Shown: positions 13,881 through 63,851 of the stretch, in pieces | Layout: every line of letters starts with the position of its first letter | Numbering within the stretch: the first letter of the stretch is position 1 | NCBI GenBank assembly: GCA_022340425.1 | Contig: JAJDNY010000021.1 | Coordinates: 2,972 to 66,971, forward strand | DNA length: 64,000 bases | From: Desulfobacteraceae bacterium | GTDB taxonomy: Bacteria; Desulfobacterota; Desulfobacteria; Desulfobacterales; JAABRJ01 | Direction: 5' to 3' | Program-made: the position numbers and the translations under genes | Notes under the pieces: generated by a model | Told to the model about the DNA's origin: nothing | What the model saw: only the letters and a program-made list of their open reading frames with translations | Database searches by the model: none

Positions 13881-13895
13881 GGCCGCCGCCGGCCG

Positions 13896-29547: not shown

Positions 29548-31158
29548 ATGAACGACAGTGAGCGGCAAAAAATCCTGTTTGTCGACGACGAGGAGAGCAT
29601 CCTCGAAATCGCCCGGGAATTTTTCCTGCACAAAGGCTACCAGGTTTACACGGCCTGCAACGGCCGGGAAGCGCTGGCGCTGGTGCATGCCGAGCCGATC
29701 GACTGCTGCTTCACCGATATCAACATGCCCGAGATGGACGGGCTCGAACTCGCCGAGCACATCCGCACCTTCGACAACACGATACCCGTCATCGTCATGA
29801 CCGGCTACCCCTCCATGGACAACACCCTGCGGACTCTCAAAAACGGTGTCGTCGATTTCCTGATCAAACCGGTCAATCTCAACCAGATGGAACTCTGCGT
29901 TCAGCGCGTGCTGCGGGAGCGGCAGCTGTTCGTCGAAAACATCCTGCTGAAGAAGGAGGTCGCCCACAAGGAGCGCCTGGAAAAGCTCAACCGCGAGCTG
30001 CTCTGCAAGGTCGAGGAACTGCACGTGCTCAACAAGATCATGCGCAATTTCAACACCATCAGCCAGAGCACCGACGTTTTCAAGCGGGTCATCGACCTCA
30101 CCCTTGAAATAACGCCGGCGGAGGACTCCCGTTTTTACGTGATCAACGACGGGCTGCAAAAACCGGTGGTCATCGCGCGTGCCGGAGCCCCGGGTGGCCC
30201 GGGCGGACCGCCCGAAAATGCGGCCGACCCCGTCCCGCAGGCGGCGGCCGAAGAGGCCGCGATCGAAACCCTCATTCTGGAGAGTGTGGCGGATGAGGTG
30301 CCCCTGCTGGTTGCCGAAAACCGCGGCGCCCGCGGGCTGGCGGAAGATATTCGATCTTTCGTGGCGGTTCCCCTCAAAATCCGGGAAAAAGTCTTCGGCG
30401 TGCTGACCGCCATGGTGCGCTCCGCCGGGCCGCGGTTCAACGAGAAAGATCTCTACTATCTCTCCTTCATGACCCAGAATGCCGCCTATGCCGTCGAAAA
30501 TCTAGCCCTCTACGAAAATATCTATGAAAATCTCTTCTCCACCCTGTTTGCCTTCGTGAAAGCCATCGAAGCCCGCGACCAGTACACCCAGCAGCACTCC
30601 AACCGCGTGACCGGGATCGCCATCGCCATCGGCAAACAGCTGGGCTGCACCACCGAAGAAATCGGCATTCTGAACCTGGCCGGCCAGCTGCACGATATCG
30701 GTAAAATTGGCATCCCTGACGATATTTTGCTAAAACCCGGGCGCTTGACTCCCGAAGAATTCGAGACCATCAAGGGGCACTCCCTGATCGGCGCCAGCAT
30801 CGTGGGTCAGCTGGGTCTCTGGGACCGGGAACAACAGATCATCCGCTCCCACCACGAGCGCTTCGACGGCACCGGCTACCCGGACGGCCTGGCCGGCGAG
30901 GAGATCCCCCTCCTGGCCCGGATCCTTTCCATCGCGGACGTCTACGACGCCATGGCCTCCGACCGCACCTACCGCAGGCGCATGGCGGAGAGCCGCATTC
31001 TGGAAATCATCCAGGAGGGCGCCGGGTCGCAGTTCGACCCCACCATCGTCAGCGTCTTCATGCAGCTCTACCGGGAAGGTAAAATTGCCGGCCAGGAGTG
31101 GGAGGCAGGGCAGGACGCCGATCGCCACCCGTCGCCGCCCCTGTCCCTGACAGCCTAA
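29548..31158 (+). CDS. Response regulator with GAF and HD-GYP (c-di-GMP phosphodiesterase) domains
   Basis: Canonical REC (FVDDEE, CCFTDINMPEMDG, VMTGY, DFLIKP), a central GAF-like region, and HD-GYP motifs HDIGKIGIP...HHERFDGTGYPDGL. Confidence 0.88.
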   Translation: MNDSERQKILFVDDEESILEIAREFFLHKGYQVYTACNGREALALVHAEPIDCCFTDINMPEMDGLELAEHIRTFDNTIPVIVMTGYPSMDNTLRTLKNGVVDFLIKPVNLNQMELCVQRVLRERQLFVENILLKKEVAHKERLEKLNRELLCKVEELHVLNKIMRNFNTISQSTDVFKRVIDLTLEITPAEDSRFYVINDGLQKPVVIARAGAPGGPGGPPENAADPVPQAAAEEAAIETLILESVADEVPLLVAENRGARGLAEDIRSFVAVPLKIREKVFGVLTAMVRSAGPRFNEKDLYYLSFMTQNAAYAVENLALYENIYENLFSTLFAFVKAIEARDQYTQQHSNRVTGIAIAIGKQLGCTTEEIGILNLAGQLHDIGKIGIPDDILLKPGRLTPEEFETIKGHSLIGASIVGQLGLWDREQQIIRSHHERFDGTGYPDGLAGEEIPLLARILSIADVYDAMASDRTYRRRMAESRILEIIQEGAGSQFDPTIVSVFMQLYREGKIAGQEWEAGQDADRHPSPPLSLTA

Positions 31159-31314
31159 CACCCCGAGGGCATTTGGTATTTACACCCGCCCCGGTTGATG
31201 CTATGAATTCCCGCCTACCTTCGCGGATCAGGCTTGCACGTTCCCCCGTCCCATCGCCGCCGGCCGGCGGCCGCTGCCGGCCGGCCGGGCTTGCTGGACG
31301 GTTCTGGTGTGGAT

Positions 31315-31875
31315 ATGGATGAGAAACGGACGTTTGTTCGCGCCCTGATTTCGACCCGCGCAAAAATAAAGCTGCTCACGCCCCGGGAGCTGGAAGAAAT
31401 TCGGAGCTTGCGGACCGCGGCGCGTCCGCTGCAGGGCCAACTGCCGCAGCCTGCGGATGCAGACGACTCTGCCCCGGCCTATCTGGGGGAATTGGTCGAG
31501 TACTTGATCCAGATCGACGACAAGCTGGACCGTGTCATGGATCTACTGATCCACGGCAAGGGCGGCGATGCGGCCCCGCCAGAGGTTCTGCAAACCATCG
31601 ACATCAGCGGCGCCGGCATGTTCATGGTTCTCTCGGCGCCCCTGGATGTTGGCCAGCTGCTGCAGGTCACCATCCGTTTTCCGGGTTTTCCCCTGGGGCT
31701 TTTCAAGGTTTTGGGCGAGGTGGTGCGGATCGAACCCGCCAGTGAAGAGCAGGCCTTGGTCTACCACACTGGGGTGCGGTTTCTGGAAATGACCGACGCC
31801 GAGCGGGACCGCCTGGTCGCCTACACTTTCATGCAGCAGCGCCGGACCATCCGGGAGTCCAAAAAGGAATCCTGA
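31315..31875 (+). CDS. PilZ domain protein (c-di-GMP receptor-like) with long insertion between the two binding motifs
   Basis: RTFVR (RxxxR) at residues 5-9 and DISGAG (DxSxxG) at residues 96-101 counted from Met 31315. The ORF track frame opens at 31234. Confidence 0.75.
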   Translation: MDEKRTFVRALISTRAKIKLLTPRELEEIRSLRTAARPLQGQLPQPADADDSAPAYLGELVEYLIQIDDKLDRVMDLLIHGKGGDAAPPEVLQTIDISGAGMFMVLSAPLDVGQLLQVTIRFPGFPLGLFKVLGEVVRIEPASEEQALVYHTGVRFLEMTDAERDRLVAYTFMQQRRTIRESKKES

Positions 31876-31961
31876 CCGGCGGACGGGGCCGACGCCGCCC
31901 GCCGTCCCTTGCCGGGCCCACGGCCAAACTGTACCAGAGATCACGGAAGCGCACCCAGATC

Positions 31962-33356
<1,395 letters not shown>

Positions 33357-33535
33357 GATCCAGACCGTCCCTCCGCGGGCCGCGCTTTCGCCAAAATTTT
33401 GACAGATCTTCCCGCGGCGACCGGTTCGCCGCCCCCCAACAGTATCCCCCGCATCCAGCCTGACGCCCCGGCAGGCCGGCGATTTTCTCCAGCTGCAACC
33501 GCGCGCCCCCTTCTGCGTCGCCCATAACCCTTTGA

Positions 33536-33551
33536 TGGCACAGTGTTTGCT
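33536..33551 (+). promoter_or_regulatory. Sigma54 (-24/-12) promoter TGGCAC-AGTGT-TTGCT
   Basis: Exact match to the TGGCAC-N5-TTGCW consensus: GG at 33537-38, GC at 33549-50. It lies in the intergenic region upstream of the AMIN/TPR gene. Confidence 0.75.
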
Positions 33552-33694
33552 CTCGTCTTTGCCTGATGCCCCGCGGCTTTTTGCCGATTCCTCTGGCTCA
33601 CGGGCCTGCCTTCCACGGCTGGGGAGCGGGGCAGCGGATCAGATCGCTCGCACGGCCGGCGGCCCTTATCGGCGCTGGCAGACAGGAGACGGAC

Positions 33695-36217
33695 GTGTTC
33701 AGGCCGATTTTTTGGCGGCGCAAATATATCAGGTGGCGGCGTGTTTCCAAAGGTGTGGGCCTGGTCCTGCTGGTGCTGTGGGGGTTGGGGCCCAACGCCG
33801 GTCTTGGGGCCGTCAAGCCGGCGGGTCAAATCGAGAAAATTGCGCTCTCGGCGGATCCTCTGCGGATCGCAGTTCACCTTCCCGGCCCCGTGCCCTTCAA
33901 GGTCGTTCAGGTGGATGCAGGTGAAGTCCTAATCGCCCTTCGCAACCTGCGCCATGTGGATTCGGTTCCCCAAAGCGGCCGGGGCGGGGCCTTTCTGAAA
34001 AGCCTTTCGCTGGCCGGGCTGCCCCAGGAGGTCGTGGGAATTACCCTGAAAACCGCCGGGCCCGTAAAAAACATAGGGGCCCAGTGGCTGGAGGATAACC
34101 GGGTGCTGGCCGTGACTCTGGTGGGCCCTGAAAAACCCCAGCCGCCGCCCCCTGTTGTACCCGCTCAGCCGGCGGGCAAATCGACGCCGGACGCTGGCGC
34201 CCAGCCGCCGCCCCCGACCCCCTCCGACAGCCGGAAGCGGGCGACGGATGCCGCGGCGATTCGTTTTATCCCCGGCACCCTGGATGCCCTTCTCGAGGAG
34301 GTCGCCACGTCCGGGTGCGGGACCGAAGCCGACCTTGAGCGGGCGCTGGCGCTCTGCCGAGCAGGGCAACGGCACGAGGCGGCCGCACTGCTGGAAGAAT
34401 ACCTCGCAGACCTGTCGCCGGACGCGCCGGGCGCCGGGGGCGGCTGCGCCGAGGCAGGCCTTTTCCTGCACGCCTACTGCCTCTTCCAGGCTCGGACGGC
34501 GGGGGATGCCATGGCCCGGCTGGAGGCGGCGCAGCACTTCCAGGACGCCATCAACCGCTTTCCGGACTCGCCGCTGCTGCCCTACGCCCTGTCCGCCCTG
34601 GGCGCTACCGCCATGGCCTTCAACAATTTTGAGGAGGCCAGGGGCTATTTCAAACTGGTTTTGGACCGCTACCCCGATTATCGGGGGACCCCCGAGACCC
34701 TGCTGGGTCTGGGCCGGGTGCACGCCGCCAAGAAAAATCACGAGGCTGCCGTTTCCGCCTTTCGCAAAATCATCGACGCTTTCCCCGGCTCCCAGCCGGT
34801 TGCCGAGGCCAAAATGGCTTTGGGCCAGAGCCTGTATGCCACCAATCACCTTCAGGAAGCGATCACCGTGCTGAGCGCGATCCGGGCCGAAAGTCCCCGC
34901 CGGGTTTACGCATCCCCGGATCTCCTGGTTTCTCTGGGCAACGCCTATTATCAGAGCGGGCAGTTGGAAAAGTCCTGTCAGACCCTGGCGGCGGCCTACA
35001 ATGCCTTCCCCCGGGACGGCCAGAACCACATCCTCCTGACCCGCATCGGAGACATTTACCGGGATCTCGGCCAGCCTGCCAAGGCCCTGCCGTTCTACAG
35101 GCTGGTGCGCCAGCGCTTCCCGGGAACCGACGGCTATCTGATCAGCTCTCTGCGGGAGGCGGAGGCCATCACCGACGCGGCCGAGAAGGAAAAAATCTAC
35201 CGCATGATCATCGCGGACTACCCCGCCAACCCGCTCTCCAATCTCGCCCTGGTCAGTTTGGCCGAGCATTTCAGCCGCACCGGCGAGGACGAAAAGAGCA
35301 TTGCCGCCATTCGCAAGTTTTTCGACAAGTACCCGCGGGAATTGAACCAGGAGGCCGTTTTCATCTTCCAGGAAGCCTACCTGCGGGTGTTCAGGCGGCT
35401 GGCGGCCGCCAACGACTACCCCGGCATCCTGGCGCGCTTCGAGGCCGACCGGACGATTCTGAAGCGGGTGGAGAGCCCGGATCTTTTCTACCTGGCCGGG
35501 CAAGCCTACCTCCAGGCCCGGCTTTACCGTCAGGCCGCCGGGGCTCTCAAGAGCGCCCATGACCTCTACCTGTCCAGCCGGCGCCCGTCGGAGCTGGCGT
35601 TTGAATTGGGGGCCGCGCTCCAGGGCGCCGGGGACCCCGCCAGGGCCCTGCCGTTTCTGGAGGCCTTCCTGGAAAAGACGCCCGACGCCCCGCATGCCGC
35701 AGAAGCCAGCTACCGCTGCGGGCAGATCCTGATTGGCGACAAGGTTTACGACAAGGCCCTGGCCCGTTTTCAAACCGCCCTGGCCTCTGCAGGCCGGCCG
35801 CATGACCGGGCGCTGACGCTTATGGGGATGGCCGAGGCCTACCGCGGACTGAACCGCCCCCAGGCCGCAGTCGACAGTCTGCTTGAGGCCGTCAACCACC
35901 TGGCGGGCGCCTCCGATAAGGCCTACGAAACGCTTTTCACGGCCCACCGCCGCCTGGGGGAGGCCTACCGGGCTTTGGGAGCCTTTGACAAGGCGGCCGA
36001 TGCACTGGCCATGGCCTTGAAATTTACCGAGCAGCCCGAGAAGTATCCGGACCTCCATTTCCTCCTGGGGGAAACCTACCAGAAGGGTGCTGCAGCCGAA
36101 CAGGCCCGTCTGGCCTTTGGCGCGGTCGCGGCCTGCGGCGACCCGTTCTGGGCACGCCTGGCCGAGGAGGCCCTGCAGCGGCTGGCCATCGAGGGCCGGT
36201 TGGCGCGGCAGGCTTGA
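33695..36217 (+). CDS. Large AMIN-like + Pro-rich linker + multi-TPR protein
   Basis: Signal-anchor (GVGLVLLVLWGLG) and an AMIN-like beta segment (IEKIALSADPLRIAVHLPGPVPFKVVQVDAGEVLIAL). Then PQPPPPVVPAQP and more than 10 TPR-like repeats (e.g. ALSALGATAMAFNNFEEARGYFKLVLDRYPD). GTG 33695 after AGGAGA is preferred because the ATG at 33566 would sit only ~15 nt after the sigma54 -12 element. Confidence 0.75.
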   Translation: MFRPIFWRRKYIRWRRVSKGVGLVLLVLWGLGPNAGLGAVKPAGQIEKIALSADPLRIAVHLPGPVPFKVVQVDAGEVLIALRNLRHVDSVPQSGRGGAFLKSLSLAGLPQEVVGITLKTAGPVKNIGAQWLEDNRVLAVTLVGPEKPQPPPPVVPAQPAGKSTPDAGAQPPPPTPSDSRKRATDAAAIRFIPGTLDALLEEVATSGCGTEADLERALALCRAGQRHEAAALLEEYLADLSPDAPGAGGGCAEAGLFLHAYCLFQARTAGDAMARLEAAQHFQDAINRFPDSPLLPYALSALGATAMAFNNFEEARGYFKLVLDRYPDYRGTPETLLGLGRVHAAKKNHEAAVSAFRKIIDAFPGSQPVAEAKMALGQSLYATNHLQEAITVLSAIRAESPRRVYASPDLLVSLGNAYYQSGQLEKSCQTLAAAYNAFPRDGQNHILLTRIGDIYRDLGQPAKALPFYRLVRQRFPGTDGYLISSLREAEAITDAAEKEKIYRMIIADYPANPLSNLALVSLAEHFSRTGEDEKSIAAIRKFFDKYPRELNQEAVFIFQEAYLRVFRRLAAANDYPGILARFEADRTILKRVESPDLFYLAGQAYLQARLYRQAAGALKSAHDLYLSSRRPSELAFELGAALQGAGDPARALPFLEAFLEKTPDAPHAAEASYRCGQILIGDKVYDKALARFQTALASAGRPHDRALTLMGMAEAYRGLNRPQAAVDSLLEAVNHLAGASDKAYETLFTAHRRLGEAYRALGAFDKAADALAMALKFTEQPEKYPDLHFLLGETYQKGAAAEQARLAFGAVAACGDPFWARLAEEALQRLAIEGRLARQA

Positions 36218-36293
36218 GAGCGATGACCGCGGGAAATAAACCGACGCCCGGAAGGCTGCCGATGATCCCCACCAATCCCCGGTCTGAGGGACG

Positions 36294-37652
36294 ATGACGT
36301 CAAACTGCCAGATTCTCGTCGCGGAGGAAAACTACCGGGAGCGGGCCGCCTTGGCCCGCCTGCTGGAAGCGTGGGGTTATCCCGTGACCACCGCCATCGA
36401 CGGTCACGACGCCCTGCGCAAACTTCAGGAGCAGCCGTTTCGACTGGTGATCGCCGGCAGCCGTCTGCCCGGGTGCGGCAGCCTGGAGGTGATGCGCCAG
36501 GCCCTGGCCCAGGATGACGCCCCGGCGGTTGTGATCCTTTCCGCTCAGGCCTGCGTGGATGAGGCCGTGGCCGCGATGAAAGCCGGCGCGCTGGACTTCA
36601 TGATCAAACCGGTGGCGCCCGAGCAGCTCAAGCAGCGGGTCGAGGGCGTCATGGGCGCCGAGCCCGGAGGTCTTGAGGCCGATCGTCGACGCGCCCCGGA
36701 GCGCGCCATTATCACCCGGGACCCGTCGATGCAGCGCCTGCTGTCCCTGGCCGGACAGGTGGCCGACAGCCGTGCGGCGGTTTTGATCCAGGGCGAGAGC
36801 GGCACCGGAAAGGAGCTTCTGGCCCGCTTCATACATGGCCGCAGCCGGCGCCGGGAAGGCCCCTTCCGGGCCGTCAACTGCGGTGCGCTGCCCGAGTCCC
36901 TGCTGGAAAGCGAGCTTTTCGGCTATGAAAAAGGGGCCTTTACCGGTGCATTGGGACGTAAAACGGGTGTCTTCGAACAGGCCCAGGGCGGGACCCTGCT
37001 GCTCGATGAAGTCACCGAGATGGCTTTTCACCTCCAGTCCCGCCTGCTGCGGGTGCTGCAGGAGGGCGAGGTCGACCGCGTCGGCGGCACCCACCCGGTA
37101 AAGCTCGACGTGCGCGTTATCGCCACCACCAACCGTGATATCAAGGCCGCCGTGGCCGAGGGCGACTTTCGCGAGGACCTCTTCTACCGCCTCAACGTCA
37201 TCCCGTTGAAGATTCCGCCGCTGCGGGAACGAAAGAACGACCTGCCGCTTTTGGTGTGCCATTTCATCGAAAAATACAACGAGATTGACGGGCGCTCCGT
37301 CAAGAATTTGACTGATCAGGCCCTTGCAAAGCTCGCCGGACTGCCCTTCAGGGGCAACGTGCGCGAACTGGAAAACCTGGTGGAACGGGCGTTGCTGCTG
37401 GCCGGGGGCGAGACCATCACGGCCGAGGACCTGCTGCTGGATGAGGGCCTGCTACCGGCGGAAAACCCGCCATCGGACGCACCGACGTCGGCCGGGACGG
37501 GCCCCGAGCCTTTGCGGGAGGCCGAGCGCCGGCTGATTTTGGATGCCCTGGACCACACCGCGGGCAATCGCACCCACGCCGCCAAAGTCCTCGGGATCAG
37601 CGTCCGCACCCTGCGCAACAAGCTCAACGAATATGGGCAAAAGTCCTCCTGA
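36294..37652 (+). CDS. Sigma54-dependent transcriptional activator with degenerate receiver domain (FleQ/FlrA-like by architecture), EBP2
   Basis: GESGTGKE, GAFTGA, LLDEV, RELEN, HTH (HAAKVLGISVRTL). The REC-like N-terminus has G55 where the phospho-acceptor Asp is expected (RLVIAGSRLPG). Confidence 0.88.
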   Translation: MTSNCQILVAEENYRERAALARLLEAWGYPVTTAIDGHDALRKLQEQPFRLVIAGSRLPGCGSLEVMRQALAQDDAPAVVILSAQACVDEAVAAMKAGALDFMIKPVAPEQLKQRVEGVMGAEPGGLEADRRRAPERAIITRDPSMQRLLSLAGQVADSRAAVLIQGESGTGKELLARFIHGRSRRREGPFRAVNCGALPESLLESELFGYEKGAFTGALGRKTGVFEQAQGGTLLLDEVTEMAFHLQSRLLRVLQEGEVDRVGGTHPVKLDVRVIATTNRDIKAAVAEGDFREDLFYRLNVIPLKIPPLRERKNDLPLLVCHFIEKYNEIDGRSVKNLTDQALAKLAGLPFRGNVRELENLVERALLLAGGETITAEDLLLDEGLLPAENPPSDAPTSAGTGPEPLREAERRLILDALDHTAGNRTHAAKVLGISVRTLRNKLNEYGQKSS

Positions 37653-49300: not shown

Positions 49301-50065
49301 ATGGACATAGCCACGCTTCTGGGAACGGTGTCCGCCTTCGGGCTGGTGTTGATCGCGATCATCATGGGGGGCGGACTCTCTCTGTTCATCAACGTTCCTT
49401 CGCTGATGATTGTCGTGGGAGGGACCCTCGGGGCCACCATGATCAATTACCCCCTCAAAGACGTCCTGGGAGCGCTGCGGGTGGTTAAAAACGTGTTTTT
49501 GAGCAAGAGCGCCTCGGTGGAGAAGATCGTCGAGCAGTTCGTGGGTTTCGGCAACAAGTCACGGCGTGAGGGCATCCTCTCGCTGGAGGAGGATGTCAAG
49601 AACGTCGAGGACATCTTTCTCAAGAAGGGCCTGCAGCTGTCGGTGGACGGGCTGGAGCCCGGGTCGATCCAGAACATCCTGGAGACCGAAATCGCGTTTC
49701 TGCGGGAACGACACCAGCTGGGGGCCGAAATTTTCGCCACCATGGGCACCTTTGCACCTGCCCTGGGGATGATCGGGACCCTCATCGGGCTGGTTCAGAT
49801 GCTGCAGTCCATGGAGGATCCCAGTTCCATCGGCCCGGCGATGGCCGTGGCGCTGTTGACCACCTTCTACGGCTCGCTGATCGCCAACCTGGTCTGCATG
49901 CCGATCTCCGGAAAGCTCAAGACCCGCAGCAAAGAGGAGACGCTCGCCAAGGAGATGATCACCGAAGGCGTGATCTCCCTTACCAAGGGCGAAAACCCGC
50001 GGATTCTCGAGCAGAAGATGCTGGCGTTCGTCTCACCGAGCCAGCGCCAGTCCCATTTCAAATAA
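49301..50065 (+). CDS. motA: Flagellar stator protein MotA/PomA
   Basis: 254 aa with 4 TM segments and the MotA/TolQ/ExbB motif FAPALGMIGTLIGLVQML...AVALLTTFYGSLIAN. Confidence 0.92.
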   Translation: MDIATLLGTVSAFGLVLIAIIMGGGLSLFINVPSLMIVVGGTLGATMINYPLKDVLGALRVVKNVFLSKSASVEKIVEQFVGFGNKSRREGILSLEEDVKNVEDIFLKKGLQLSVDGLEPGSIQNILETEIAFLRERHQLGAEIFATMGTFAPALGMIGTLIGLVQMLQSMEDPSSIGPAMAVALLTTFYGSLIANLVCMPISGKLKTRSKEETLAKEMITEGVISLTKGENPRILEQKMLAFVSPSQRQSHFK

Positions 50066-50101
50066 TCCTCCCAACGGCGGACGACCCCGAGGGGCGCCAG
50101 A

Positions 50102-50848
50102 ATGGCCCGCAAACAGAAACAACCCGCAGCCGCAGGCAGCAACCTTATTCAGGTGATGACGGTCTCGCTCTTTATCATTCTGCTGGCGTTTTTCATTCTG
50201 CTCAACGCCATCGCGGTGGTGGACGAGCAGCGGCAGCGCCAGGCGCTGGGATCCCTGCTGGAGAGCTTCGCGGGTCTTTCGGGTGGCTTCAGTTTTCTTG
50301 AGCGCAAGCAAAGCCCTTCGGCGCTGCCCCCCTTTCCGGCGCCGGCAGGCAGGGTGGACTTCACCCCCTTGCTGGAAACCGCCGAGCATTTGAACCAGCA
50401 GGTGCGGATCCGGAGCACCCAGCGCGGTGCGGTGGTGTCGCTGCAGGCCGATGGGCTTTTCCAGGGTCCGGGGGTGCAAATCCGGCCGGCGGCGCATCCC
50501 CTGCTGGTGCGGTTGGCAGACCTGATCCTGAAAAGCGAGGCCCCCGTCGAGGTCAGCGGCCACAGCGACAACAGCCCAGCCGACCCCACCCAGGGAGGAT
50601 CCCCCATGGCGCTCTCCGCCCGGCGGGCGCTTGGTGTGCTGCGGTTTTTGGTCGACCGGGGGGGGGTGCCGGCCGAGCGCATCACGGCCTACGGTCGGGG
50701 GCCGCATCAACCCCTGGCCGCCAACACCACCCGCGAGGGCCGGGCGCTCAATCGGCGGGTGGACGTGCTGCTGCTGCATCCCCGGGGCCTTCAGAAGCCC
50801 CAGCGGGGCTTCACCTTCAAATCGTTTTTCTTCAAGGTGTTCAGGTAG
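50102..50848 (+). CDS. MotB-like OmpA-domain protein lacking the conserved TM aspartate
   Basis: N-terminal TM QVMTVSLFIILLAFFILL aligns with MVTFADLVMLLLTFFVLL of the next gene, with Ser in place of Asp. C-terminal OmpA-like motifs SGHSDN...ALSARRA...GRG...NRRVDVLL. Confidence 0.8.
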   Translation: MARKQKQPAAAGSNLIQVMTVSLFIILLAFFILLNAIAVVDEQRQRQALGSLLESFAGLSGGFSFLERKQSPSALPPFPAPAGRVDFTPLLETAEHLNQQVRIRSTQRGAVVSLQADGLFQGPGVQIRPAAHPLLVRLADLILKSEAPVEVSGHSDNSPADPTQGGSPMALSARRALGVLRFLVDRGGVPAERITAYGRGPHQPLAANTTREGRALNRRVDVLLLHPRGLQKPQRGFTFKSFFFKVFR

Positions 50849-50892
50849 CGACGGATGCTGGCGATCCATCCCAAGGGGAGGTAACAGCCGTT

Positions 50893-51642
50893 TTGGCCAG
50901 AAACAGCGGCAGAAAAAACCGCGGACAGGACCTTGCGCAGGTCGACCCCAACGCCTGGATGGTGACCTTCGCCGACTTGGTGATGCTGCTGCTGACCTTC
51001 TTCGTTTTGCTGCTGACGATGAAGTCCATGGACACCGGAAAAGTGCGCACCATTTTCAACATCGCCGCCGCCACCCAGGGCCCCATGAGCCACAGCGCGG
51101 TCAGCCCCCGGGTCAGTCCCATCGACGACGCCCAGGGCGCCCCGCGGATCGACACCCTCAGCGATAGCCGTCTGGTGGCCGAGGCGGTGGAACTTCTTAA
51201 CGGCATTCAGCGGGTGAAGGCCGAAAACCCCGAGATGGCAGCCGTTCTCGATCTGCTGGGGGTTTCCGAGGACCAGCGGGGGGTGGTGATCTCGCTGGAG
51301 GCCGACCACCTCTTCGCTTCCGGTGAGGCCGTGATCCGTCCCCAGAAACTCCCGATCCTGGAGGGCATCAAAAAGGTCCTGCGGTTTGCGGCCAACCAGA
51401 TTCTGATCATGGGCCATAGCGACCGCCAGCCGGTGGTCGGCGGCCGTTTCGCCAGCAACTGGGAGCTCTCCTTGGAGCGCGCCCTGAGTGTCCACGCGGT
51501 GCTGACCGCACCGCCGGGGCTTGACCCGGCGCAGCTGGGGGTGGGCGGCTATGGCGACCGGCGGCCGCTCTTCGGCCCCGATACCCCGGAAAACCGCGCC
51601 CGCAACCGGCGGGTGGAATTTATTCTGCGAAAACCGAATTGA
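50893..51642 (+). CDS. motB: Flagellar stator protein MotB (canonical, Asp-containing)
   Basis: WMVTFADLVMLLLTFFVLLL plug/TM with the conserved Asp. OmpA-like C-terminus GHSD...NWELSLERA...GYGD..P...NRRVEFIL. TTG start after GGGGAGG. Confidence 0.88.
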   Translation: MARNSGRKNRGQDLAQVDPNAWMVTFADLVMLLLTFFVLLLTMKSMDTGKVRTIFNIAAATQGPMSHSAVSPRVSPIDDAQGAPRIDTLSDSRLVAEAVELLNGIQRVKAENPEMAAVLDLLGVSEDQRGVVISLEADHLFASGEAVIRPQKLPILEGIKKVLRFAANQILIMGHSDRQPVVGGRFASNWELSLERALSVHAVLTAPPGLDPAQLGVGGYGDRRPLFGPDTPENRARNRRVEFILRKPN

Positions 51643-52091
51643 GCGAGGAAAGACCGGTGCAAAGCAATTTTTCGGTGCAAGTCAAATCCCTGCCGGCGCT
51701 GCTGTTGGCGCTGCTGACGCTCTGCAGCCCGATGACCGGCTGCAAGGGGCAGGAGGCCGATGGCCGGCAGGCGGCGGTGGCGGCTGATTTCGGCCAGATT
51801 TTCGACCTCGACACCTTCGTGGTCAATCTGGGCGACCAGGGCGGCAAGCGCTACCTGAAGACCAAGATCGCCCTGGAGTACGGCAGCGAAGCGCTCGGAA
51901 AGGAAATGATCACCCGCCTGCCCCAACTGCGGGACATGATTCTGCTCCTGCTCAGCAGTAAAACCCTGGATCAGATCCAGGATATCGACGGCAAAATCGC
52001 GCTGCGCAACGAACTGATGGCTCGGATCAACCAGACCCTGCAGCAGGGGCATATCAAAAACCTCTATTTCACCGAGTTCGTCATTCAGTAG
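51639..52091 (+). CDS. fliL: Flagellar basal body-associated protein FliL
   Basis: FDLDTFVVNLGD...YLKTKIALEY...LPQLRDMILLLLSSK...LRNELMARIN...IKNLYFTEFVIQ. TTG 51639 or GTG 51657 as start. Confidence 0.88.
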   Translation: MSEERPVQSNFSVQVKSLPALLLALLTLCSPMTGCKGQEADGRQAAVAADFGQIFDLDTFVVNLGDQGGKRYLKTKIALEYGSEALGKEMITRLPQLRDMILLLLSSKTLDQIQDIDGKIALRNELMARINQTLQQGHIKNLYFTEFVIQ

Positions 52092-52103: not shown

Positions 52104-53075
52104 ATGAGCGATATTCTTTCCCAGGATGAGGTCGACAGCCTTCTCAGCGGTCTGACCACCGGCAAGGTCGAAGCCGAGACCGACACCGGACCCGATCCCC
52201 AGGAGGTTCAGGCCTACGACTTCACCCGCCAGGACCAGGTGGTGCGCGGGCGGATGCCGACCTTTGAGCTGGTCAACGAACGGCTGGCCAAGGAGATGCG
52301 CGCCGGCGTCTCCAACCTGCTGCACACCAGTGTGGGGATTGCCCTGAAGGCCACCGACACGATCAAGTTTTCCGAATTCACCCGCTCGCTGCCGGTGCCC
52401 ACCAGCCTGCATCTCTTCCGCATGGAGCCGCTGCGCGGCTTTGCCCTGATGGTCCTGGAAAGCCGGCTGGTCTATAACCTGATCGACACTTTTTTCGGCG
52501 GCCGCGGCGACGGCAAGGCCAAGATCGAGGGGCGCGAGTTCACCCCGATCGAGACCGTCATGATCCAGAAGGTGGTCGCCGTTTGTCTCGAGGCCCTCAA
52601 AAAGGCCTGGCGCCCGGTGGAGGTGATCGATACGGTCTTCGTCCGCTCGGAGATGAACCCCCAGTTTGCGACGGTTCTGCTGCCCTCGGACCTGGTGATC
52701 GTCTCGCGCTTCGAGGTCGAGCTGGAGCAAAGCGCGGGTCTCATCACGGTCAGCCTGCCCTATGCGATGATCGAACCCATTCGCAGCAAGCTCAACGCCG
52801 GCTTCCAGAGCGACGCCCTTGAAGTCGACCAGGCTTGGCAGCGGCGGATGCGGGAAATCCTGCAGGTCGCCGAGATCAGTTTTGGGGTGGCTCTGGGGGC
52901 CACCGAGATAACCGGCGAGCGCCTGATTCACCTCAGGGTCGGGGACGTGATTCAACTGGACAACGATGCCGAGGAGCGCCTGACCGGTTTGGTGGCCGGG
53001 GTTCCCAAATTCAAGGGTTTTGCCGGCACCCACCGGGGGTGCCAGGCCTTCAAGGTGGACAGCCGATTGGAGTAG
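52104..53075 (+). CDS. fliM: Flagellar motor switch protein FliM
   Basis: N-terminal CheY-P docking peptide MSDILSQDEVDSLLSG, and the FliM middle domain with GGRG-type motif (FFGGRGDG). Confidence 0.95.
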   Translation: MSDILSQDEVDSLLSGLTTGKVEAETDTGPDPQEVQAYDFTRQDQVVRGRMPTFELVNERLAKEMRAGVSNLLHTSVGIALKATDTIKFSEFTRSLPVPTSLHLFRMEPLRGFALMVLESRLVYNLIDTFFGGRGDGKAKIEGREFTPIETVMIQKVVAVCLEALKKAWRPVEVIDTVFVRSEMNPQFATVLLPSDLVIVSRFEVELEQSAGLITVSLPYAMIEPIRSKLNAGFQSDALEVDQAWQRRMREILQVAEISFGVALGATEITGERLIHLRVGDVIQLDNDAEERLTGLVAGVPKFKGFAGTHRGCQAFKVDSRLE

Positions 53076-59027: not shown

Positions 59028-60200
59028 ATGGGTGTCCGCAACTACAAGGCCAGAAGCATCGCCGAGGCCCTTCGCCGGGTCAAGGCGGATCTGGGCTCAG
59101 ACGCCATGATTCTCTCCACCCGCCAGCTCCCTGCAGGGTTCAAGAACCCTTACGGCGGCGCCATGTTTGAGGTCTCCGCAATTTGCGCCCAGGAAGCGCC
59201 GGAAGCCGCCGGACACGGCCGGGCCGACGCTTTTATGTCGGGGGCGGTCGGCCCGCAGCCGGACAGCGCGGCGCCCGAAGCCTGCGGGATGGGCTGGCAG
59301 GCGCTGCAGAGCGAACTTGTCGGAATCCGCGAAATGCTGGGTCTGCTCAATATGGGCGGCGGGCTGCCCGACATGATTCTGGAGCACCCCCAATGGCTCG
59401 GTCTTTACGCGCGGCTGGTGCGTGCCGGGGTTTCGGCCCAACGGGTGCAAGGGGCGCTGCGGCATCTTTGCCAAGCGGGCTCCCCGTCCGACCCCGCGGG
59501 CGCCGCCCAGCGCGTCATGGCCGAAATTCTCAAGTCGGTTCTGACCTGCGAGCCCTTTGCGGCCGCCGCCGGCGCCCCGCAGTTTGCCGCTTTCGTGGGG
59601 CCCACCGGTGTCGGCAAGACCACCACGATCGCCAAGCTGGCGGCCGAACTCAGCCTCAAAGCCAAAAAGCGGGTGGGACTGATCTCGATCGACAGTTTCC
59701 GGATCGGCGCCGTTGAGCAGCTCCGGACGTATGCCGCCATCATGGGGCTGCCCTGCCTGCCCGCCTTCTCGCACCAGGACCTCAGGTTGGCGGTGGAAAA
59801 AATGGCCCGGCAGGACGTTGTCTTGATCGACACCGCCGGCCACAGCCATCTCGACGGCCAGCGGATGCAGCAGCTGCAGACGCTGCTGGGAGGGCAGGGG
59901 CCGATCGCCAGCCACCTGGTTCTCAGCGCAGCCACCAACCGCCTGGACCTTCAGGAGGCCGCGGCGCGCTTCGCCGTATTCAGACCTTGTTCGTACGTTT
60001 TTACCAAGCTGGACGAAACCCGGCAGCGCGGGGTGATCATCGATCAGGCCGAAACCCTGCGGCTTCCGATTTCTTACATTACCACCGGGCAGCGGGTGCC
60101 GGAGGACATCCTTCCGGCCACCCGGCAGACGATTCTGGACCGCATTTTCGACGCCCCCGGCCCCGTGCCGGAAGTACCGACCCTGAAAGGGAGACCCTGA
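59028..60200 (+). CDS. flhF: Flagellar placement SRP-type GTPase FlhF
   Basis: G1 FVGPTGVGKTTTIAKL, DTAG, and TKLDE motifs. Confidence 0.92.
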   Translation: MGVRNYKARSIAEALRRVKADLGSDAMILSTRQLPAGFKNPYGGAMFEVSAICAQEAPEAAGHGRADAFMSGAVGPQPDSAAPEACGMGWQALQSELVGIREMLGLLNMGGGLPDMILEHPQWLGLYARLVRAGVSAQRVQGALRHLCQAGSPSDPAGAAQRVMAEILKSVLTCEPFAAAAGAPQFAAFVGPTGVGKTTTIAKLAAELSLKAKKRVGLISIDSFRIGAVEQLRTYAAIMGLPCLPAFSHQDLRLAVEKMARQDVVLIDTAGHSHLDGQRMQQLQTLLGGQGPIASHLVLSAATNRLDLQEAAARFAVFRPCSYVFTKLDETRQRGVIIDQAETLRLPISYITTGQRVPEDILPATRQTILDRIFDAPGPVPEVPTLKGRP

Positions 60201-60201
60201 C

Positions 60202-61113
60202 GTGGATCAAGCCAGCAGCCTCCGAAAAATCATTTCCACCCATGCCCGCCAGAGGCCGCAGCGCTTGAGCACCCCGGCAGCCGGCGATACAGCGGCTGCG
60301 GTCCCCGCCCCGCGGGCCATCGCCGTAACCAGCGGCAAGGGCGGTGTGGGCAAGACCAATATCGTCGGCAACCTGGCCCTGGTGCTGGCCGACCGCGGCC
60401 ACAAGGTGCTCATCCTGGATGCCGATCTCGGGCTGGCCAATATCGACATCATTTTCGGCGTTCACCCGAAATTCAATATCGGACACGTGCTCGACGGCGA
60501 AAAAACCCTCTCGGAGATCATCGTCGAGGGCCCGGCCGGGATCCAGATCGTCCCGGCCGGCTCCGGCTTCACCCACCTGACCCATCTGACCGAGGGGCAG
60601 AAGCTCAACCTGCTGGGGGAGTTCGAGGCCTTCGGCAACGAGCTGGACGTGATGCTGATCGACACCGGGGCCGGGATATCGTCCAATGTCCTCTATTTCA
60701 ATCTGGCGGCCGACGACTGCATCATCGTGGCGACCCCCGAGCCCACCGCCATCACCGACGCCTATGCCATGATGAAGGTCATGTCTCTGCAGCACGGGAC
60801 CCGTCATTTCCAACTGCTGGTCAACATGGCCACCAGCGAGCTGGAGGCCAAAGCGGTCTACGCCAGCCTGGTGCAGGCCGCCGAGCGCTTCCTCAACGGG
60901 GTTGTGATTCAATACCTGGGCATGGTTCCCAGCGATCATAGCGTCACCCGCGCGGTGCGCGACCGGCGCATCGCCGTCGAGGCATACCCCGAAGCCGCCT
61001 GGAGCCGCGGCATCAACGCCCTGGCCGATCAGCTCATGGACGCGCCGCGGTGCCAGAATACCGACGGCAATATCAAGTTTTTTTTCAAACGTTTCATCGA
61101 ATTCCGTGTCTGA
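60202..61113 (+). CDS. flhG: MinD/ParA-type ATPase FlhG (FleN/YlxH)
   Basis: Deviant Walker A SGKGGVGKT and a C-terminal amphipathic membrane-targeting helix (IKFFFKRFIEF). GTG start 1 nt after the flhF stop. Confidence 0.9.
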   Translation: MDQASSLRKIISTHARQRPQRLSTPAAGDTAAAVPAPRAIAVTSGKGGVGKTNIVGNLALVLADRGHKVLILDADLGLANIDIIFGVHPKFNIGHVLDGEKTLSEIIVEGPAGIQIVPAGSGFTHLTHLTEGQKLNLLGEFEAFGNELDVMLIDTGAGISSNVLYFNLAADDCIIVATPEPTAITDAYAMMKVMSLQHGTRHFQLLVNMATSELEAKAVYASLVQAAERFLNGVVIQYLGMVPSDHSVTRAVRDRRIAVEAYPEAAWSRGINALADQLMDAPRCQNTDGNIKFFFKRFIEFRV

Positions 61114-61204: not shown

Positions 61205-61975
61205 ATGATGACGACAAAATTTGCGTATGCTAGCGGTGGGAACGACCAGTGTTATTTCGATGAAAAAGAACGCGAGGCCTTGATCGTCAGGTATGCCCCG
61301 CTGGTCAAGCGGATCGCTGGCCGAATGGCCATGCGGATTCCCTCCAGCGTTCTTTTCGACGAACTGCTCAGTGCCGGCTGTCTCGGTCTGATCAACGCGG
61401 TGGACCGCTTTGACCCCGAAAGGGATGTCAACCTCAAGACCTACGCCGAGTATCGGATCAAGGGGGCGATCCTGGACGAACTTCGCCGGATGGACTGGTA
61501 TTCGCGGTCCATGCGGAAAAAAATGCAGCGGATCGAAAAGGCTCTGGTGGCGGTGGAGGGCCGCACCCAGCGGCCGGCCGAAGCCCAGGAGATCGCCGCG
61601 GAGTTGGGCATCGCGCTGGAAGATTACTTCAATACTCTCTCGGACATCCATCGGGTATCACTGCTGAGCCTGGATGAGTTCATCAAGGATGAGGCCAATG
61701 ACGCGGTCTCCAAAAAATCCTTTCAGGAGAGCATCCGCAGCGCAGACGACCCTTCCGAAAACGTGGCCAAGGAGGAACTCAAGCGCGTGATTGCCCAGGC
61801 CATCAAAACGCTTTCGGAAAAAGAGCAGATCGTGGTCTCGCTATACTACTACGACGAGTTGACCCTTAAGGAGATCGGACACGTGTTGAGTCTCACGGAG
61901 TCGCGCATCTGCCAGATCCACGCCATGGCGGTGATCAAATTGAAGATCCGCCTCAAGAAATACTGTGCGATCTAA
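61205..61975 (+). CDS. fliA: Flagellar sigma factor FliA (sigma28)
   Basis: Sigma70 region 2 (FDELLSAGCLGLINAVDRFDPERDVNLKTYAEYRIKGAILDELR) and region 4 HTH (LTLKEIGHVLSLTESRICQIH). Position after flhG. Confidence 0.92.
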   Translation: MMTTKFAYASGGNDQCYFDEKEREALIVRYAPLVKRIAGRMAMRIPSSVLFDELLSAGCLGLINAVDRFDPERDVNLKTYAEYRIKGAILDELRRMDWYSRSMRKKMQRIEKALVAVEGRTQRPAEAQEIAAELGIALEDYFNTLSDIHRVSLLSLDEFIKDEANDAVSKKSFQESIRSADDPSENVAKEELKRVIAQAIKTLSEKEQIVVSLYYYDELTLKEIGHVLSLTESRICQIHAMAVIKLKIRLKKYCAI

Positions 61976-62047
61976 TGGCACCGTACATCGTGGGCGGCAT
62001 GGGTCGGGTTTCCAGGAAATTTTTTGTGATGCCGGCAAACCGCAGCC

Positions 62048-63427
62048 ATGAACGCTAAGTCCTCACCCCCCACCATCCCGCAGTACGTTTCCCAGGCGGA
62101 CATCGATGCCCTGCTGCAGGGCGCCGGGACGCAGGAGGCCCCGCCGGAGGGCCCCGAAGAGCCGCAGTCGGCGACGGCCGACGCCGACGAGGTGATGATC
62201 TCTCAAACGGACATCGATGCGCTGCTGCAGGGCGCCGGGACCCAGGAGGCCCCGCCGGAGGGCCTGGAAGAGTCGCAGCCGGCGACGGTCGAGGCGGACG
62301 AGGTGATGATCTCCCAGGCGGACATCGATGCGCTGCTGCAAGGCGCCGGGGCGCAGGAGGCCCCGCCGGAGGGCCTGGAAGAGCCGCAGCCGGCGTCGGC
62401 CGAGGCGGACGAGGTGATGATCTCCCAGGCGGACATCGATGCGCTGCTGCAGGGCGCCGGGACGCAGGAGGCCCCGCCGGAGGGCCTGGAAGAGCCGCAG
62501 CCGGCGACGGTCGAGGCGGACGAGGTGATGATCTCCCAGGCGGACATCGATGCCCTGCTGCAAGCGGCATCGGCGCCTGTCGGCCCCAGCGATCCCTCCC
62601 CCGGGGTGGATCCCCGGTCGTCCAACGCCGGTGGGGATGGCGGGGAGGAAATTTTCATCTCCCAGGCGGATATTGACGCCCTGATGGCTTCCGAGGACTT
62701 GGTGGCAAGCGAAGCGATCGACCTTGCTTCCCCGGGGGTGAGTGCCGCCCCGGACCCCCAGGCGCCTGCCGCGGACCGCGCGCAGCAAGAGCCGCACCCA
62801 AAGGACGAACAGGAAGCGGGCGGACTTCCGGTGCCGTCTGTCGGCCGTGACGGCACCGGGCCTCAAAAGGTCATTTTGGCGCCGTCCGACGGGGAGCAGT
62901 CACCCGCCGTCAAGGCTCCTGAAGACCAACAGCGGGCCGCGAAGCGCTGGTTTTCATCAAAGACCCTGTGGACCGTGGCGGCAGTTTTGCTGATCCTGAT
63001 CTCCACGGTGACCTCGTTTAGCATCTACGGTCGCCGAACATCCGCGCGGGGCGCCGGCGCCGGGCCCCAGACCTTTCCCATACCGCAGAGTACTGCCGGC
63101 GCCCAGGCGCCCGACCCAACAGGCCCGGTCCAGATGGTCCTGGCGGGCTTCGTCGTGCCGGCTTCATTTGATAAAGAAGGGGCGGCCGGTCTGCTGGTGG
63201 ATGTCCAATTGGCTTTTTCCGATGCCGCCGCAGGATCTGAGGTCAAGCGGCACGAACCCTATTTCCGCAGCCTCGTATTCGGTGTTTTGTCCGATGTCCT
63301 GGCCGATCGCAGCCGCCCGGAGGTCGACGAACCGGCGCTCACCGCTGGGATCAAAGACGCGCTCAACCGCGCATTGCCGCGGGCCAGCATCCGCACGGTA
63401 GCCCTGGAGAACCTGCGTCTGCTTTAA
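62048..63427 (+). CDS. Repeat-containing single-pass membrane protein: 6x 'SQxDIDALL' motifs + TM + FliL-like C-terminal domain
   Basis: High GC3 in this frame. Five tandem motif copies (residues 15-175) plus a sixth (ISQADIDALMASEDL). TM WTVAAVLLILISTVTSFSIYG. The C-terminal ~100 aa parallel the in-window FliL pattern (LAGFVVPA.., LLVDVQLAF, EPYFRSLVFGVL, IKDALNRAL..IRTVALENLRLL). Confidence 0.8.
   Translation: MNAKSSPPTIPQYVSQADIDALLQGAGTQEAPPEGPEEPQSATADADEVMISQTDIDALLQGAGTQEAPPEGLEESQPATVEADEVMISQADIDALLQGAGAQEAPPEGLEEPQPASAEADEVMISQADIDALLQGAGTQEAPPEGLEEPQPATVEADEVMISQADIDALLQAASAPVGPSDPSPGVDPRSSNAGGDGGEEIFISQADIDALMASEDLVASEAIDLASPGVSAAPDPQAPAADRAQQEPHPKDEQEAGGLPVPSVGRDGTGPQKVILAPSDGEQSPAVKAPEDQQRAAKRWFSSKTLWTVAAVLLILISTVTSFSIYGRRTSARGAGAGPQTFPIPQSTAGAQAPDPTGPVQMVLAGFVVPASFDKEGAAGLLVDVQLAFSDAAAGSEVKRHEPYFRSLVFGVLSDVLADRSRPEVDEPALTAGIKDALNRALPRASIRTVALENLRLL
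62090..62570 (+). repeat. Tandem direct repeat, 111-bp unit x ~4.3 (in frame, 37 codons)
   Basis: Units start at 62090, 62201, 62312, 62423 and 62534 (partial). Manual alignment shows only ~4-7 mismatches per 111 bp between units. Confidence 0.9.
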
Positions 63428-63451
63428 AGGGCCGTTCGCAGCGGCCGATAA
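63425..63451 (+). promoter_or_regulatory. Sigma28 (FliA) promoter TAAA-N15-GCCGATAA
   Basis: TAAA at 63425-28 (overlapping the TAA stop of the repeat gene), exactly 15 nt, then GCCGATAA at 63444-51. This is a perfect match to the enterobacterial class III consensus. Confidence 0.75.
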
Positions 63452-63557: not shown

Positions 63558-63851
63558 ATGACGACGATTGCCAACATAAACCAGGTGGTGCAGCAGGCCG
63601 ACAGCGCCCGGGAGATGCAACCGCCGCGGGGCGCCCTGGAAGCGGGGCAGTCGCCGGCGGCGACCCCCCAGGAAAAGCTGGCCGCCCAGGGGGCCAAGGT
63701 CCGAAGCGGCGGCAAGAGCGAAAAAACCGGCGCCGACCGGGACCGCCGCCGGCACCAGAAAAAGCGCGCCGGCAAACCCGGGACCGTCGGGGGCGGGCAG
63801 ACGGCGGCGCCCACCCGGGGCACCGGCACCCTGCTGGATATTGTGGCCTGA
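63558..63851 (+). CDS. Small basic, low-complexity hypothetical protein (97 aa), probable late flagellar-regulon gene
   Basis: High GC3 and ~105 nt downstream of the sigma28 promoter. No clear Shine-Dalgarno. The C-terminus GTLLDIVA is reminiscent of YjfB-like putative motility proteins (from memory, unverified). Confidence 0.45.
   Translation: MTTIANINQVVQQADSAREMQPPRGALEAGQSPAATPQEKLAAQGAKVRSGGKSEKTGADRDRRRHQKKRAGKPGTVGGGQTAAPTRGTGTLLDIVA

Follow-up and report, generated by a model that had tools for sequence, protein, structure and literature searches.

What is the function of a membrane protein that combines six copies of a FliM-type docking motif with a domain related to the flagellar protein FliL? 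The question is raised by the gene that follows fliA in a 64,000-nt stretch of Desulfobacteraceae DNA (contig JAJDNY010000021.1; this whole stretch is called the window below, and all coordinates refer to it unless a locus is named). The gene is a complete open reading frame (ORF) with an ATG start at 62048–63427 (+), and its 459-aa product is referred to here as the array protein. The public sequence identical to it, MCG6905436.1, is from a Desulfobacteraceae metagenome-assembled genome (MAG) and is named ‘hypothetical protein’. The helix known as EIDAL in FliM and FliY is the docking site of phosphorylated CheY (CheY-P). An earlier reading of this DNA, made without database searches (the sequence-only reading), knew of no description of an array of such motifs on a FliL-like protein, and this has held up. 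We found no description of the EIDAL plus FliL architecture, of multi-copy EIDAL arrays, or of CheY decoys or sinks in the searchable literature, and the architecture is without a model in Pfam and NCBIfam. The FliL and EIDAL modules are themselves known, and here the two are recombined in an undescribed way. The motor of this sulfate-reducing bacterium probably has an additional docking site for proteins of signaling or assembly. With modest confidence, we favor the reading that the array would be a multivalent, membrane-tethered docking platform for CheY-P at the stator ring.

The motif array

Tandem Repeats Finder (TRF) detected a single array in the gene, at 62090–62562 (+), with a period of 111 nt, 4.3 copies, 92% matches, and zero indels, giving protein units of 37 aa. 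A strict regular-expression search returned six copies of [V/I]SQxDIDAL[L/M], starting at aa 14, 51, 88, 125, 162, and 204, four of which are in 37-aa units. The two methods confirm the ORF with six motifs and four full units given in the sequence-only reading. Motif 1 is VSQADIDALL (aa 14–23, 62087–62116, with a predicted helix at aa 16–25), and motif 2 is ISQTDIDALL (aa 51–60, 62198–62227, helix 53–64). Motifs 3 (aa 88–97, 62309–62338, helix 90–98), 4 (aa 125–134, 62420–62449, helix 127–135), and 5 (aa 162–171, 62531–62560, helix 164–175) are all ISQADIDALL, the last in a truncated unit. Motif 6, ISQADIDALM (aa 204–213, 62657–62686, helix 206–225), has diverged flanks. All six are on the + strand. 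Two or more motifs were found in 0 of 20,000 composition-preserving shuffles of the 459-aa protein. Elsewhere in the six-frame translation of the window, the sole further motif is that of the FliM N-terminus, MSDILSQDEVDSLLSG, in which LSQDEVDSLL begins at nt 52116 (fliM, 52104–53075, +); the EIDAL motif was not found in the FliN of the window.

The window repeat MISQADIDALLQG and residues 5–17 of Salmonella FliM, ILSQAEIDALLNG (8umd), are identical at 9 of 13 positions, with three conservative changes, which bears out the earlier description of the repeats as FliM-type. The core sequences, ISQADIDALLQG in the array protein and LSQAEIDALLNG in Salmonella, are nearly identical, and the six [VI]SQ[AT]DIDAL[LM] copies agree with the consensus LSQxEIDALL. 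In the Pfam and NCBIfam scans, the array protein also weakly matched the N-terminus of FliY and the C-terminus of CheZ. The CheZ match (PF04344) reached 19.2 bits against a cutoff of 30.7 and covered only the region of the C-terminal peptide (profile positions 168–200 of 203). A phmmer search with a single 30-aa repeat unit gave zero relevant matches among PDB sequences, a set without the FliM16 peptides and other chains of fewer than 20 residues. One Pfam match, to SHS2_FTSA (25.8 bits against a cutoff of 25.4), was rejected as an artefact of summed weak repeat matches, with no single stretch passing; it could mislead automated annotation of the protein.

In 131 instances of the motif from 18 diverse family members, the consensus is [IV]-S-Q-[DAE]-D-I-D-[AK]-L-L-x-G, with S in 106, Q in 118, D in 119, I in 120, the second D in 113, and the two L residues in 125 and 105. 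The flanks of these motifs are unconserved, and the spacing varies from 22 to 51 residues. The same pattern can be seen at the codon level inside the window array. Pairwise differences among the four full units are 12 synonymous and 6 nonsynonymous in the 13 motif codons, and 5 synonymous and 22 nonsynonymous in the 24 spacer codons. Constraint falls on the motif, not on the spacer.

The FliL domain and the cytoplasmic tail

The window has a canonical fliL at 51639–52091 (+; PF03748, 96.8 bits), which adjoins fliM. BLASTP of the array protein against this FliL gave zero alignments, and PF03748 was unmatched in a Pfam scan of the full 459-aa protein. The isolated C-terminus scored 14.4 bits against PF03748, under the gathering cutoff of 24.6, and the NCBIfam FliL match of the array protein, at E = 0.0027, was far under the cutoff. 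A family profile was then prepared from an alignment of the C-terminal domain of 18 diverse homologues. This profile matched the FliL sequences of Helicobacter pylori (7sgn, E = 2.6e-6) and Campylobacter jejuni (9hmf, E = 0.005) in the PDB. Compared by hhalign with the canonical FliL of the window, it gave a probability of 86.7% and E = 4.3e-6 over 99 colinear columns with 20% identity. Five of the 18 aligned relatives reach PF03748 individually (best, 2.4e-6); the relative P0024 has a precomputed PF03748 match. In databases, relatives are named either FliL, as many are by the Joint Genome Institute (JGI), or hypothetical. An AlphaFold2 (AF2) model of the transmembrane helix plus domain has a mean predicted local distance difference test (pLDDT) score of 79.9, with values of 80–96 in the domain. 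The top 8 Foldseek matches to this model in the PDB are FliL chains, with template-modelling scores of 0.58–0.80 (7sgn at 0.78–0.80, then 6ahq and 9hmf), after which the list continues with the SPFH domains of stomatin and HflK. Thus, by profile and fold, the C-terminal domain of the array protein (aa 361–458, 63128–63421, +, with a β-β-α-α-α-β order) is a divergent FliL-family periplasmic domain. Since the window has the canonical gene too, the array gene encodes an additional FliL, a paralogue of the first. The sequence-only reading had the last ~100 aa matching the window FliL ‘block for block’. That is overstated, as there is no BLASTP alignment, and the homology stands at the profile level. 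It had also expected a profile search to return PF03748, which by itself stays below threshold; the link to FliL comes from the family profile and the fold.

As had been noted, a single transmembrane helix follows the linker, and it is predicted at aa 305–330 (62960–63037, +), with the N-terminus inside. The mean number of Lys plus Arg in the 15 residues flanking this helix is 4.65 on the N-side and 1.73 on the C-side in 130 family members; the N-side number is greater in 123 of the 130 and lesser in none. The positive-inside rule thus predicts that the N-terminus and the motif array are in the cytoplasm, as in FliL, which supports the cytoplasmic placement of the repeats proposed earlier. In the full-length AF2 model, short helices with bumps in pLDDT coincide exactly with the six motifs. 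The spacers and the Pro/Ala/Gln/Glu-rich linker (aa 222–303, 62711–62956, +), which is taken to be disordered, have pLDDT below 50. The tail of the window protein has a pI of 4.05 and a net charge of −50, and across the family the medians are a length of 358 aa and a net charge of −90. In this model, the first ~300 residues are a string of helical docking elements along a disordered acidic chain. The array protein therefore resembles canonical FliL (PF03748; 7SGN, and 6AHQ from Vibrio alginolyticus) in its bitopic N-in topology, SPFH-like periplasmic fold, and flagellar locus. It differs in that canonical FliL has a short cytoplasmic N-terminus, whereas here ~300 residues with six EIDAL helices take its place.

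The tail has a second short cytoplasmic motif, QKVILA (aa 273–278, 62864–62881, +), with a family consensus of [DEPN][QKPT]V[VI]L[EA]. Of the first 60 family members inspected, 59 have a motif of this type 27–38 aa ahead of the transmembrane helix. One subclade also has a DQEDEDVLGDL element upstream of it.

Distribution of the family and variation in repeat number

A word-indexed search found 28 relatives with shared architecture. The C-terminal profile was then run exhaustively with HMMER against 1.84 billion cluster representatives, giving 633 matches at E ≤ 1e-3, 169 at E ≤ 1e-10, and 72 at E ≤ 1e-30. Among the matches listed, 100 of 110 proteins of at least 300 aa have two or more motifs, with a mode of 5–8 and a maximum of 17, and multi-motif tails persist down to ~22% identity. 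Shorter family members with a single N-terminal motif exist. The search for this architecture across genomes that the sequence-only reading had proposed thus recovers no one-off but a conserved family, which comprises at least 100 clusters at the 50% identity level (169 at E ≤ 1e-10).

Species genomes were also scanned with a degenerate DNA pattern of two motifs. About 50 loci with an array and a FliL-like domain were found, nearly all in Desulfobacterales. They include the cultured Desulfospira joergensenii DSM 10085 and MAGs assigned to Desulforapulum autotrophicum, Desulfocicer vacuolatum, Desulfobacula, Desulfobacter, Desulfotignum, and Desulfamplus. In a locus assigned to Desulfosudis oleivorans (L022), a 17-motif ORF runs off the locus, so that any C-terminal domain would lie outside it. 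A Nitrospirae MAG (L045, 1–1454, +) encodes four ASQDDIDALL motifs, a transmembrane helix, and a ~130-aa domain that is FliL-like by eye and was matched by neither Pfam nor the family hidden Markov model. Possibly a very remote analogue, it is kept outside the family count. About 15 pattern matches in Phycisphaerales and Tepidisphaera were rejected, as they are paired C-terminal dockerin/EF-hand-like DxNxDGxxDQGDIDxLINVxAGGxC repeats unrelated to EIDAL (chance matches of this kind are L012, L017, L035, L049, L050, L053, L063–L067, L074, L076, and L078).

Is the array simply a neutral, unstable low-complexity expansion, or in part an assembly artefact, in an ordinary FliL paralogue? The copies are 92% identical at the DNA level, and copy number differs among near-identical metagenomic sequences, a difference that short-read assembly can produce. 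The members of the 90%-identity cluster to which the array protein belongs, P0029, P0033, P0001, and P0030, are 459, 422, 385, and 348 aa long, in exact steps of 37 aa. These steps are either strain-level copy-number polymorphism or the collapse of 92%-identical repeats in short-read assembly. However, the multi-motif tails of the full-length cluster representatives and their persistence in distant relatives, described above, are not what a neutral expansion would give, nor is a conserved motif between unrelated spacers. Lineage-specific arrays have periods of 108, 99, 114, 96, 162, and 186 nt, with copies that are 83–96% identical. The spacers are unrelated from one array to another, and the motif is the same. 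Because the periods differ and the spacers are unrelated while the motif is kept, these sequences indicate that the docking element has been amplified repeatedly and independently in different lineages. Such recurrence makes a neutral or artefactual origin very improbable.

Candidate partners and possible role of the array

The motif has the sequence of a CheY-P docking helix, but CheY is not its only documented client. The EIDAL motif of FliM/FliY is described as necessary and sufficient to bind FlhG in Shewanella putrefaciens and as used by FlhG in Bacillus subtilis. The sequence-only reading cited CheY as the partner and missed FlhG, whose gene is two upstream of the array gene. The order is flhF (59028–60200, +; SRP-type GTPase, SRP54), flhG (60202–61113, +; MinD/ParA-type ATPase), fliA (61205–61975, +; sigma-28, with Sigma70 r2, r3, and r4 matches), and the array gene, which is thus directly after fliA, as had been stated. 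The gap between fliA and the array gene is 72 nt, and a scan of the window found no + strand terminator in it, so the two are probably co-transcribed. A sigma-28 promoter with the perfect consensus TAAA-N15-GCCGATAA (63425–63451, +; 0.03 expected by chance) overlaps the stop codon of the array gene. Given this promoter and the lack of a terminator after fliA, the array gene would be the last of the unit with fliA, and the one that starts downstream of it would be FliA-dependent. A sigma-54-like TGGCAC at 61976, upstream of the array gene, was rejected, as a good −12 element is missing.

The array gene belongs to a flagellar cluster both in the window and in related loci. The order flhA-flhF-flhG-fliA-[array gene]-(91 aa)-DUF6115-FliK-like-FlhB_C-like-flgF is seen in 23 of 23 related loci, and the same flhA-to-flgF order surrounds a MAG protein of 26% identity. 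The genes conserved downstream of the array gene in related loci (63558–63851, +, in the window; 11933–14176 in locus L001) encode a ~91–97-aa protein without a family match, DUF6115, a 90-aa protein with only the C-terminal domain of FlhB, and a second FliK-like (Flg_hook) protein. In the window, the sigma-28 promoter presumably drives the 97-aa ORF at 63558–63851 (+) and the genes downstream of it. Just upstream of the canonical fliL, at 49301–51642 (+), are motA and two tandem motB paralogues (50102–50848 and 50893–51642, both MotB_plug plus OmpA). With two MotB and two FliL-type proteins, paired stator variants are conceivable. The region at 29548–37652 (+), which precedes the flagellar cluster, encodes a REC-GAF-HD (HD_5) protein, a PilZ-domain protein, two REC-sigma54 activators, and an 883-aa TPR protein, likely a c-di-GMP/sigma-54 regulatory module for motility.

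It is possible, then, that the array docks FlhG, the ATPase that restricts the number of flagella, and not CheY. It would act as a motor-borne capture device at the flagellated pole, positioning or stimulating FlhG against FlhF and blocking further flagella, as a landmark like HubP or FipA. Besides the binding of FlhG to EIDAL, the position of the gene right after flhF-flhG-fliA in all 23 loci, without an intervening terminator in the window, favors this proposal. So do the polar landmarks FimV/HubP, whose clients include FlhF/FlhG and ParA-like ATPases, and which bear the same tandem motif in an acidic cytoplasmic region. However, cheY and cheZ occupy the post-fliA position in gammaproteobacteria, so the synteny with flhG does not discriminate between the two clients. 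Furthermore, a regulator of low abundance would hardly seem to need as many as 17 motifs on one chain, and the arrays in CheZ phosphatases and beside genes for receiver (REC) domains, described next, point to receivers. We consider docking of FlhG in place of CheY to be rather unlikely. CheY-family docking and FlhG docking are not mutually exclusive.

Seven CheZ homologues (L008, L020, L041, L088, L105, L110, and L116) were found to have 2–11 tandem motif copies; six of these are above the PF04344 threshold, and L020 was recognized from its sequence only. The repeat unit is SQADIDSLFDSPAP, 3–4 times, in Azospirillum sp. TSO35-2 (L008) and AGQDDIDALFAGG, 11 times, in L088. The first CheZ copy aligns to residues ~200–211 of Escherichia coli CheZ (ASQDQVDDLLDS) in the CheY–CheZ complex 1KMI, which are the CheY-docking C-terminal peptide. 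These alignments suggest that multivalent docking of CheY may be used elsewhere, by multi-copy CheZ. To our knowledge, CheZ tails with several copies have not been described. In two Planctomycetota (L090, 2643–7616, +; L054, 3090–7992, −), a REC-domain gene is followed by a gene for a multi-motif transmembrane protein with a helical-repeat C-terminus and then by one for an STN/TPR protein. This trio is conserved and nonflagellar, and no FlhG-like gene was found nearby in the two genomes. The occurrence of the tandem motif at the CheZ docking peptide and beside REC genes therefore supports CheY-family docking.

The motif was also seen in other proteins. A Bacillota MAG (L061) has a FliM with ~10 N-terminal MAQGDIDALFDLD repeats, two Phycisphaerae (L047 and L095) have a FliN with 3 and 2 EIDAL motifs, respectively, encoded in fliN-fliPQR-flhBA operons, and Mailhella (L097) has a FliH with 3 C-terminal QADIDDLFDSPAP motifs. 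Proteins of the C-ring and of the export apparatus thus have multivalent arrays as well. FimV/HubP proteins of Shewanella sp. TC10 (L025, 2650–6273, −) and Marinobacterium jannaschii DSM 6295 (L119) have repeated QDDIDxLL in the acidic cytoplasmic repeat region, and both match TIGR03505 and TIGR03504 above cutoff. The function of this region of HubP/FimV is still under study (2026 paper, PMC12918733); from the motif, its repeats may dock CheY-like proteins or FlhG. Further carriers are a DUF2497 protein with the motif twice (L042), alphaproteobacterial proteins with a zinc ribbon, an array, and a transmembrane helix (L030 and L009), and a protein from Desulfobulbia with an array, a transmembrane helix, and a Big_9/cadherin-like domain (L103). 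The C-terminus of the DUF2497 protein is of the PopZ type.

Could the tail bind some other partner, or work physically as an entropic bristle, an acidic spacer, or a condensate scaffold, the likeness to EIDAL being that of a generic amphipathic acidic helix? The DUF2497, zinc-ribbon, FliH, and Ig-domain carriers have no obvious link to CheY, the conserved QKVILA motif shows that the tail has further partners, and the family's median net charge is extreme. A generic helix would not be expected to conserve ten positions with the specificity of FliM next to spacers that change freely, and all contexts of the motif with known function involve CheY or FlhG. On these grounds, we regard this explanation as unlikely.

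How would a docking platform for CheY-P work? We suggest that the FliL domain places the array protein, like canonical FliL, at the motor rim, at or around the stator units. The disordered tail of ~300 residues would reach the upper C-ring, putting six docking helices per copy beside it. The helices would bind the α4-β5-α5 face of CheY-P or CheY-like receivers, as single copies do in FliM, FliY, and CheZ, and the array would maintain, at the motor, a local pool of exchangeable CheY-P. Because the second binding site of FliM is missing, the array would not switch the rotor by itself. Instead, by buffering, concentrating, or competing for CheY-P, it would set the gain, threshold, and time constant of switching. 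While bound to the array, CheY-P would be protected against phosphatases that act through the same face. Valency, at 2–17 motifs, would be an evolutionarily tunable parameter, and FlhG might be a second client of the array.

Several points weigh against this reading. The cheY gene is absent from the 64-kb window. EIDAL binds FlhG too, and flhG is in what is apparently a single transcription unit, flhF-flhG-fliA-array gene. The HubP/FimV landmarks, with their FlhF/FlhG and ParA-like clients, have the same motif array. Association with the stator is deduced solely from FliL homology, in a domain that is below the Pfam threshold. The model does not account for the QKVILA motif. Finally, a pure buffer leaves the steady-state concentration of free CheY-P unchanged, so that the physiological benefit is not obvious.

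Comparison with known systems helps to define what the array protein would and would not do. It shares with the FliM/FliY N-terminal peptide, besides the sequence, a short predicted helix in a disordered segment that is predicted to be cytoplasmic. Unlike FliM and FliY, which have a single copy on the C-ring, it has six copies on a membrane protein of the stator side, and it lacks a middle domain or FliN site through which a switching signal could be passed; no FliM/FliN (SPOA, CheC-like) domain was found in its scans. The motif is of the same class as the C-terminal CheY-binding peptide of CheZ, and the repeats of multi-copy CheZ have Pro/Ala-rich spacers. Unlike CheZ, the array protein has neither the helical bundle nor the catalytic QDLTGQ motif, so phosphatase activity is not expected. 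HubP/FimV also combine a periplasmic anchor domain and one transmembrane helix with a long, acidic, disordered cytoplasmic region that recruits motility clients; the number of imperfect repeats in this region differs among close relatives, and at least two members have QDDIDxLL. They differ in having an N-terminal periplasmic LysM/FimV domain and polar peptidoglycan anchoring, in place of FliL and the presumed association with the stator; LysM/FimV_core and FimV C-terminal domains were absent from the array protein in Pfam and NCBIfam. FipA (DUF2802), the membrane partner of FlhF, is likewise a small membrane protein linked to flhF/flhG that helps to organize the polar flagellum in gammaproteobacteria. 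It has no sequence or domain similarity to the array protein, and it binds FlhF via a folded cytoplasmic domain, not via motif arrays.

A bolder extension of the docking platform is that the FliL ring at the stator is a second receptor for CheY-P, acting on stator engagement or torque in speed control or braking, and that tandem EIDAL is a general code for multivalent recruitment of the CheY family, used on CheZ, FliM, FliN, FliH, HubP/FimV, and the FliL paralogue. This is speculative, and we would not expect it to hold in full. The tandem motif on CheZ, FliM, FliN, FliH, and HubP/FimV does provide a testable hypothesis for the partners of the HubP/FimV repeats. The short peptides are suited to binding tests, and cultured hosts are available in Desulforapulum autotrophicum, Desulfospira joergensenii, Desulfosudis oleivorans, and Desulfobacula and Desulfobacter species.

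FliL is the least understood of the conserved motor proteins, and its recognized roles are all periplasmic, at the stator. We know of no link from the stator side to chemotaxis signaling or to the control of flagellar number. If the proposal is true, the array of the second FliL would provide such a link. It would also illustrate a design principle, in which the valency of a docking helix is a fast-evolving tuning knob.

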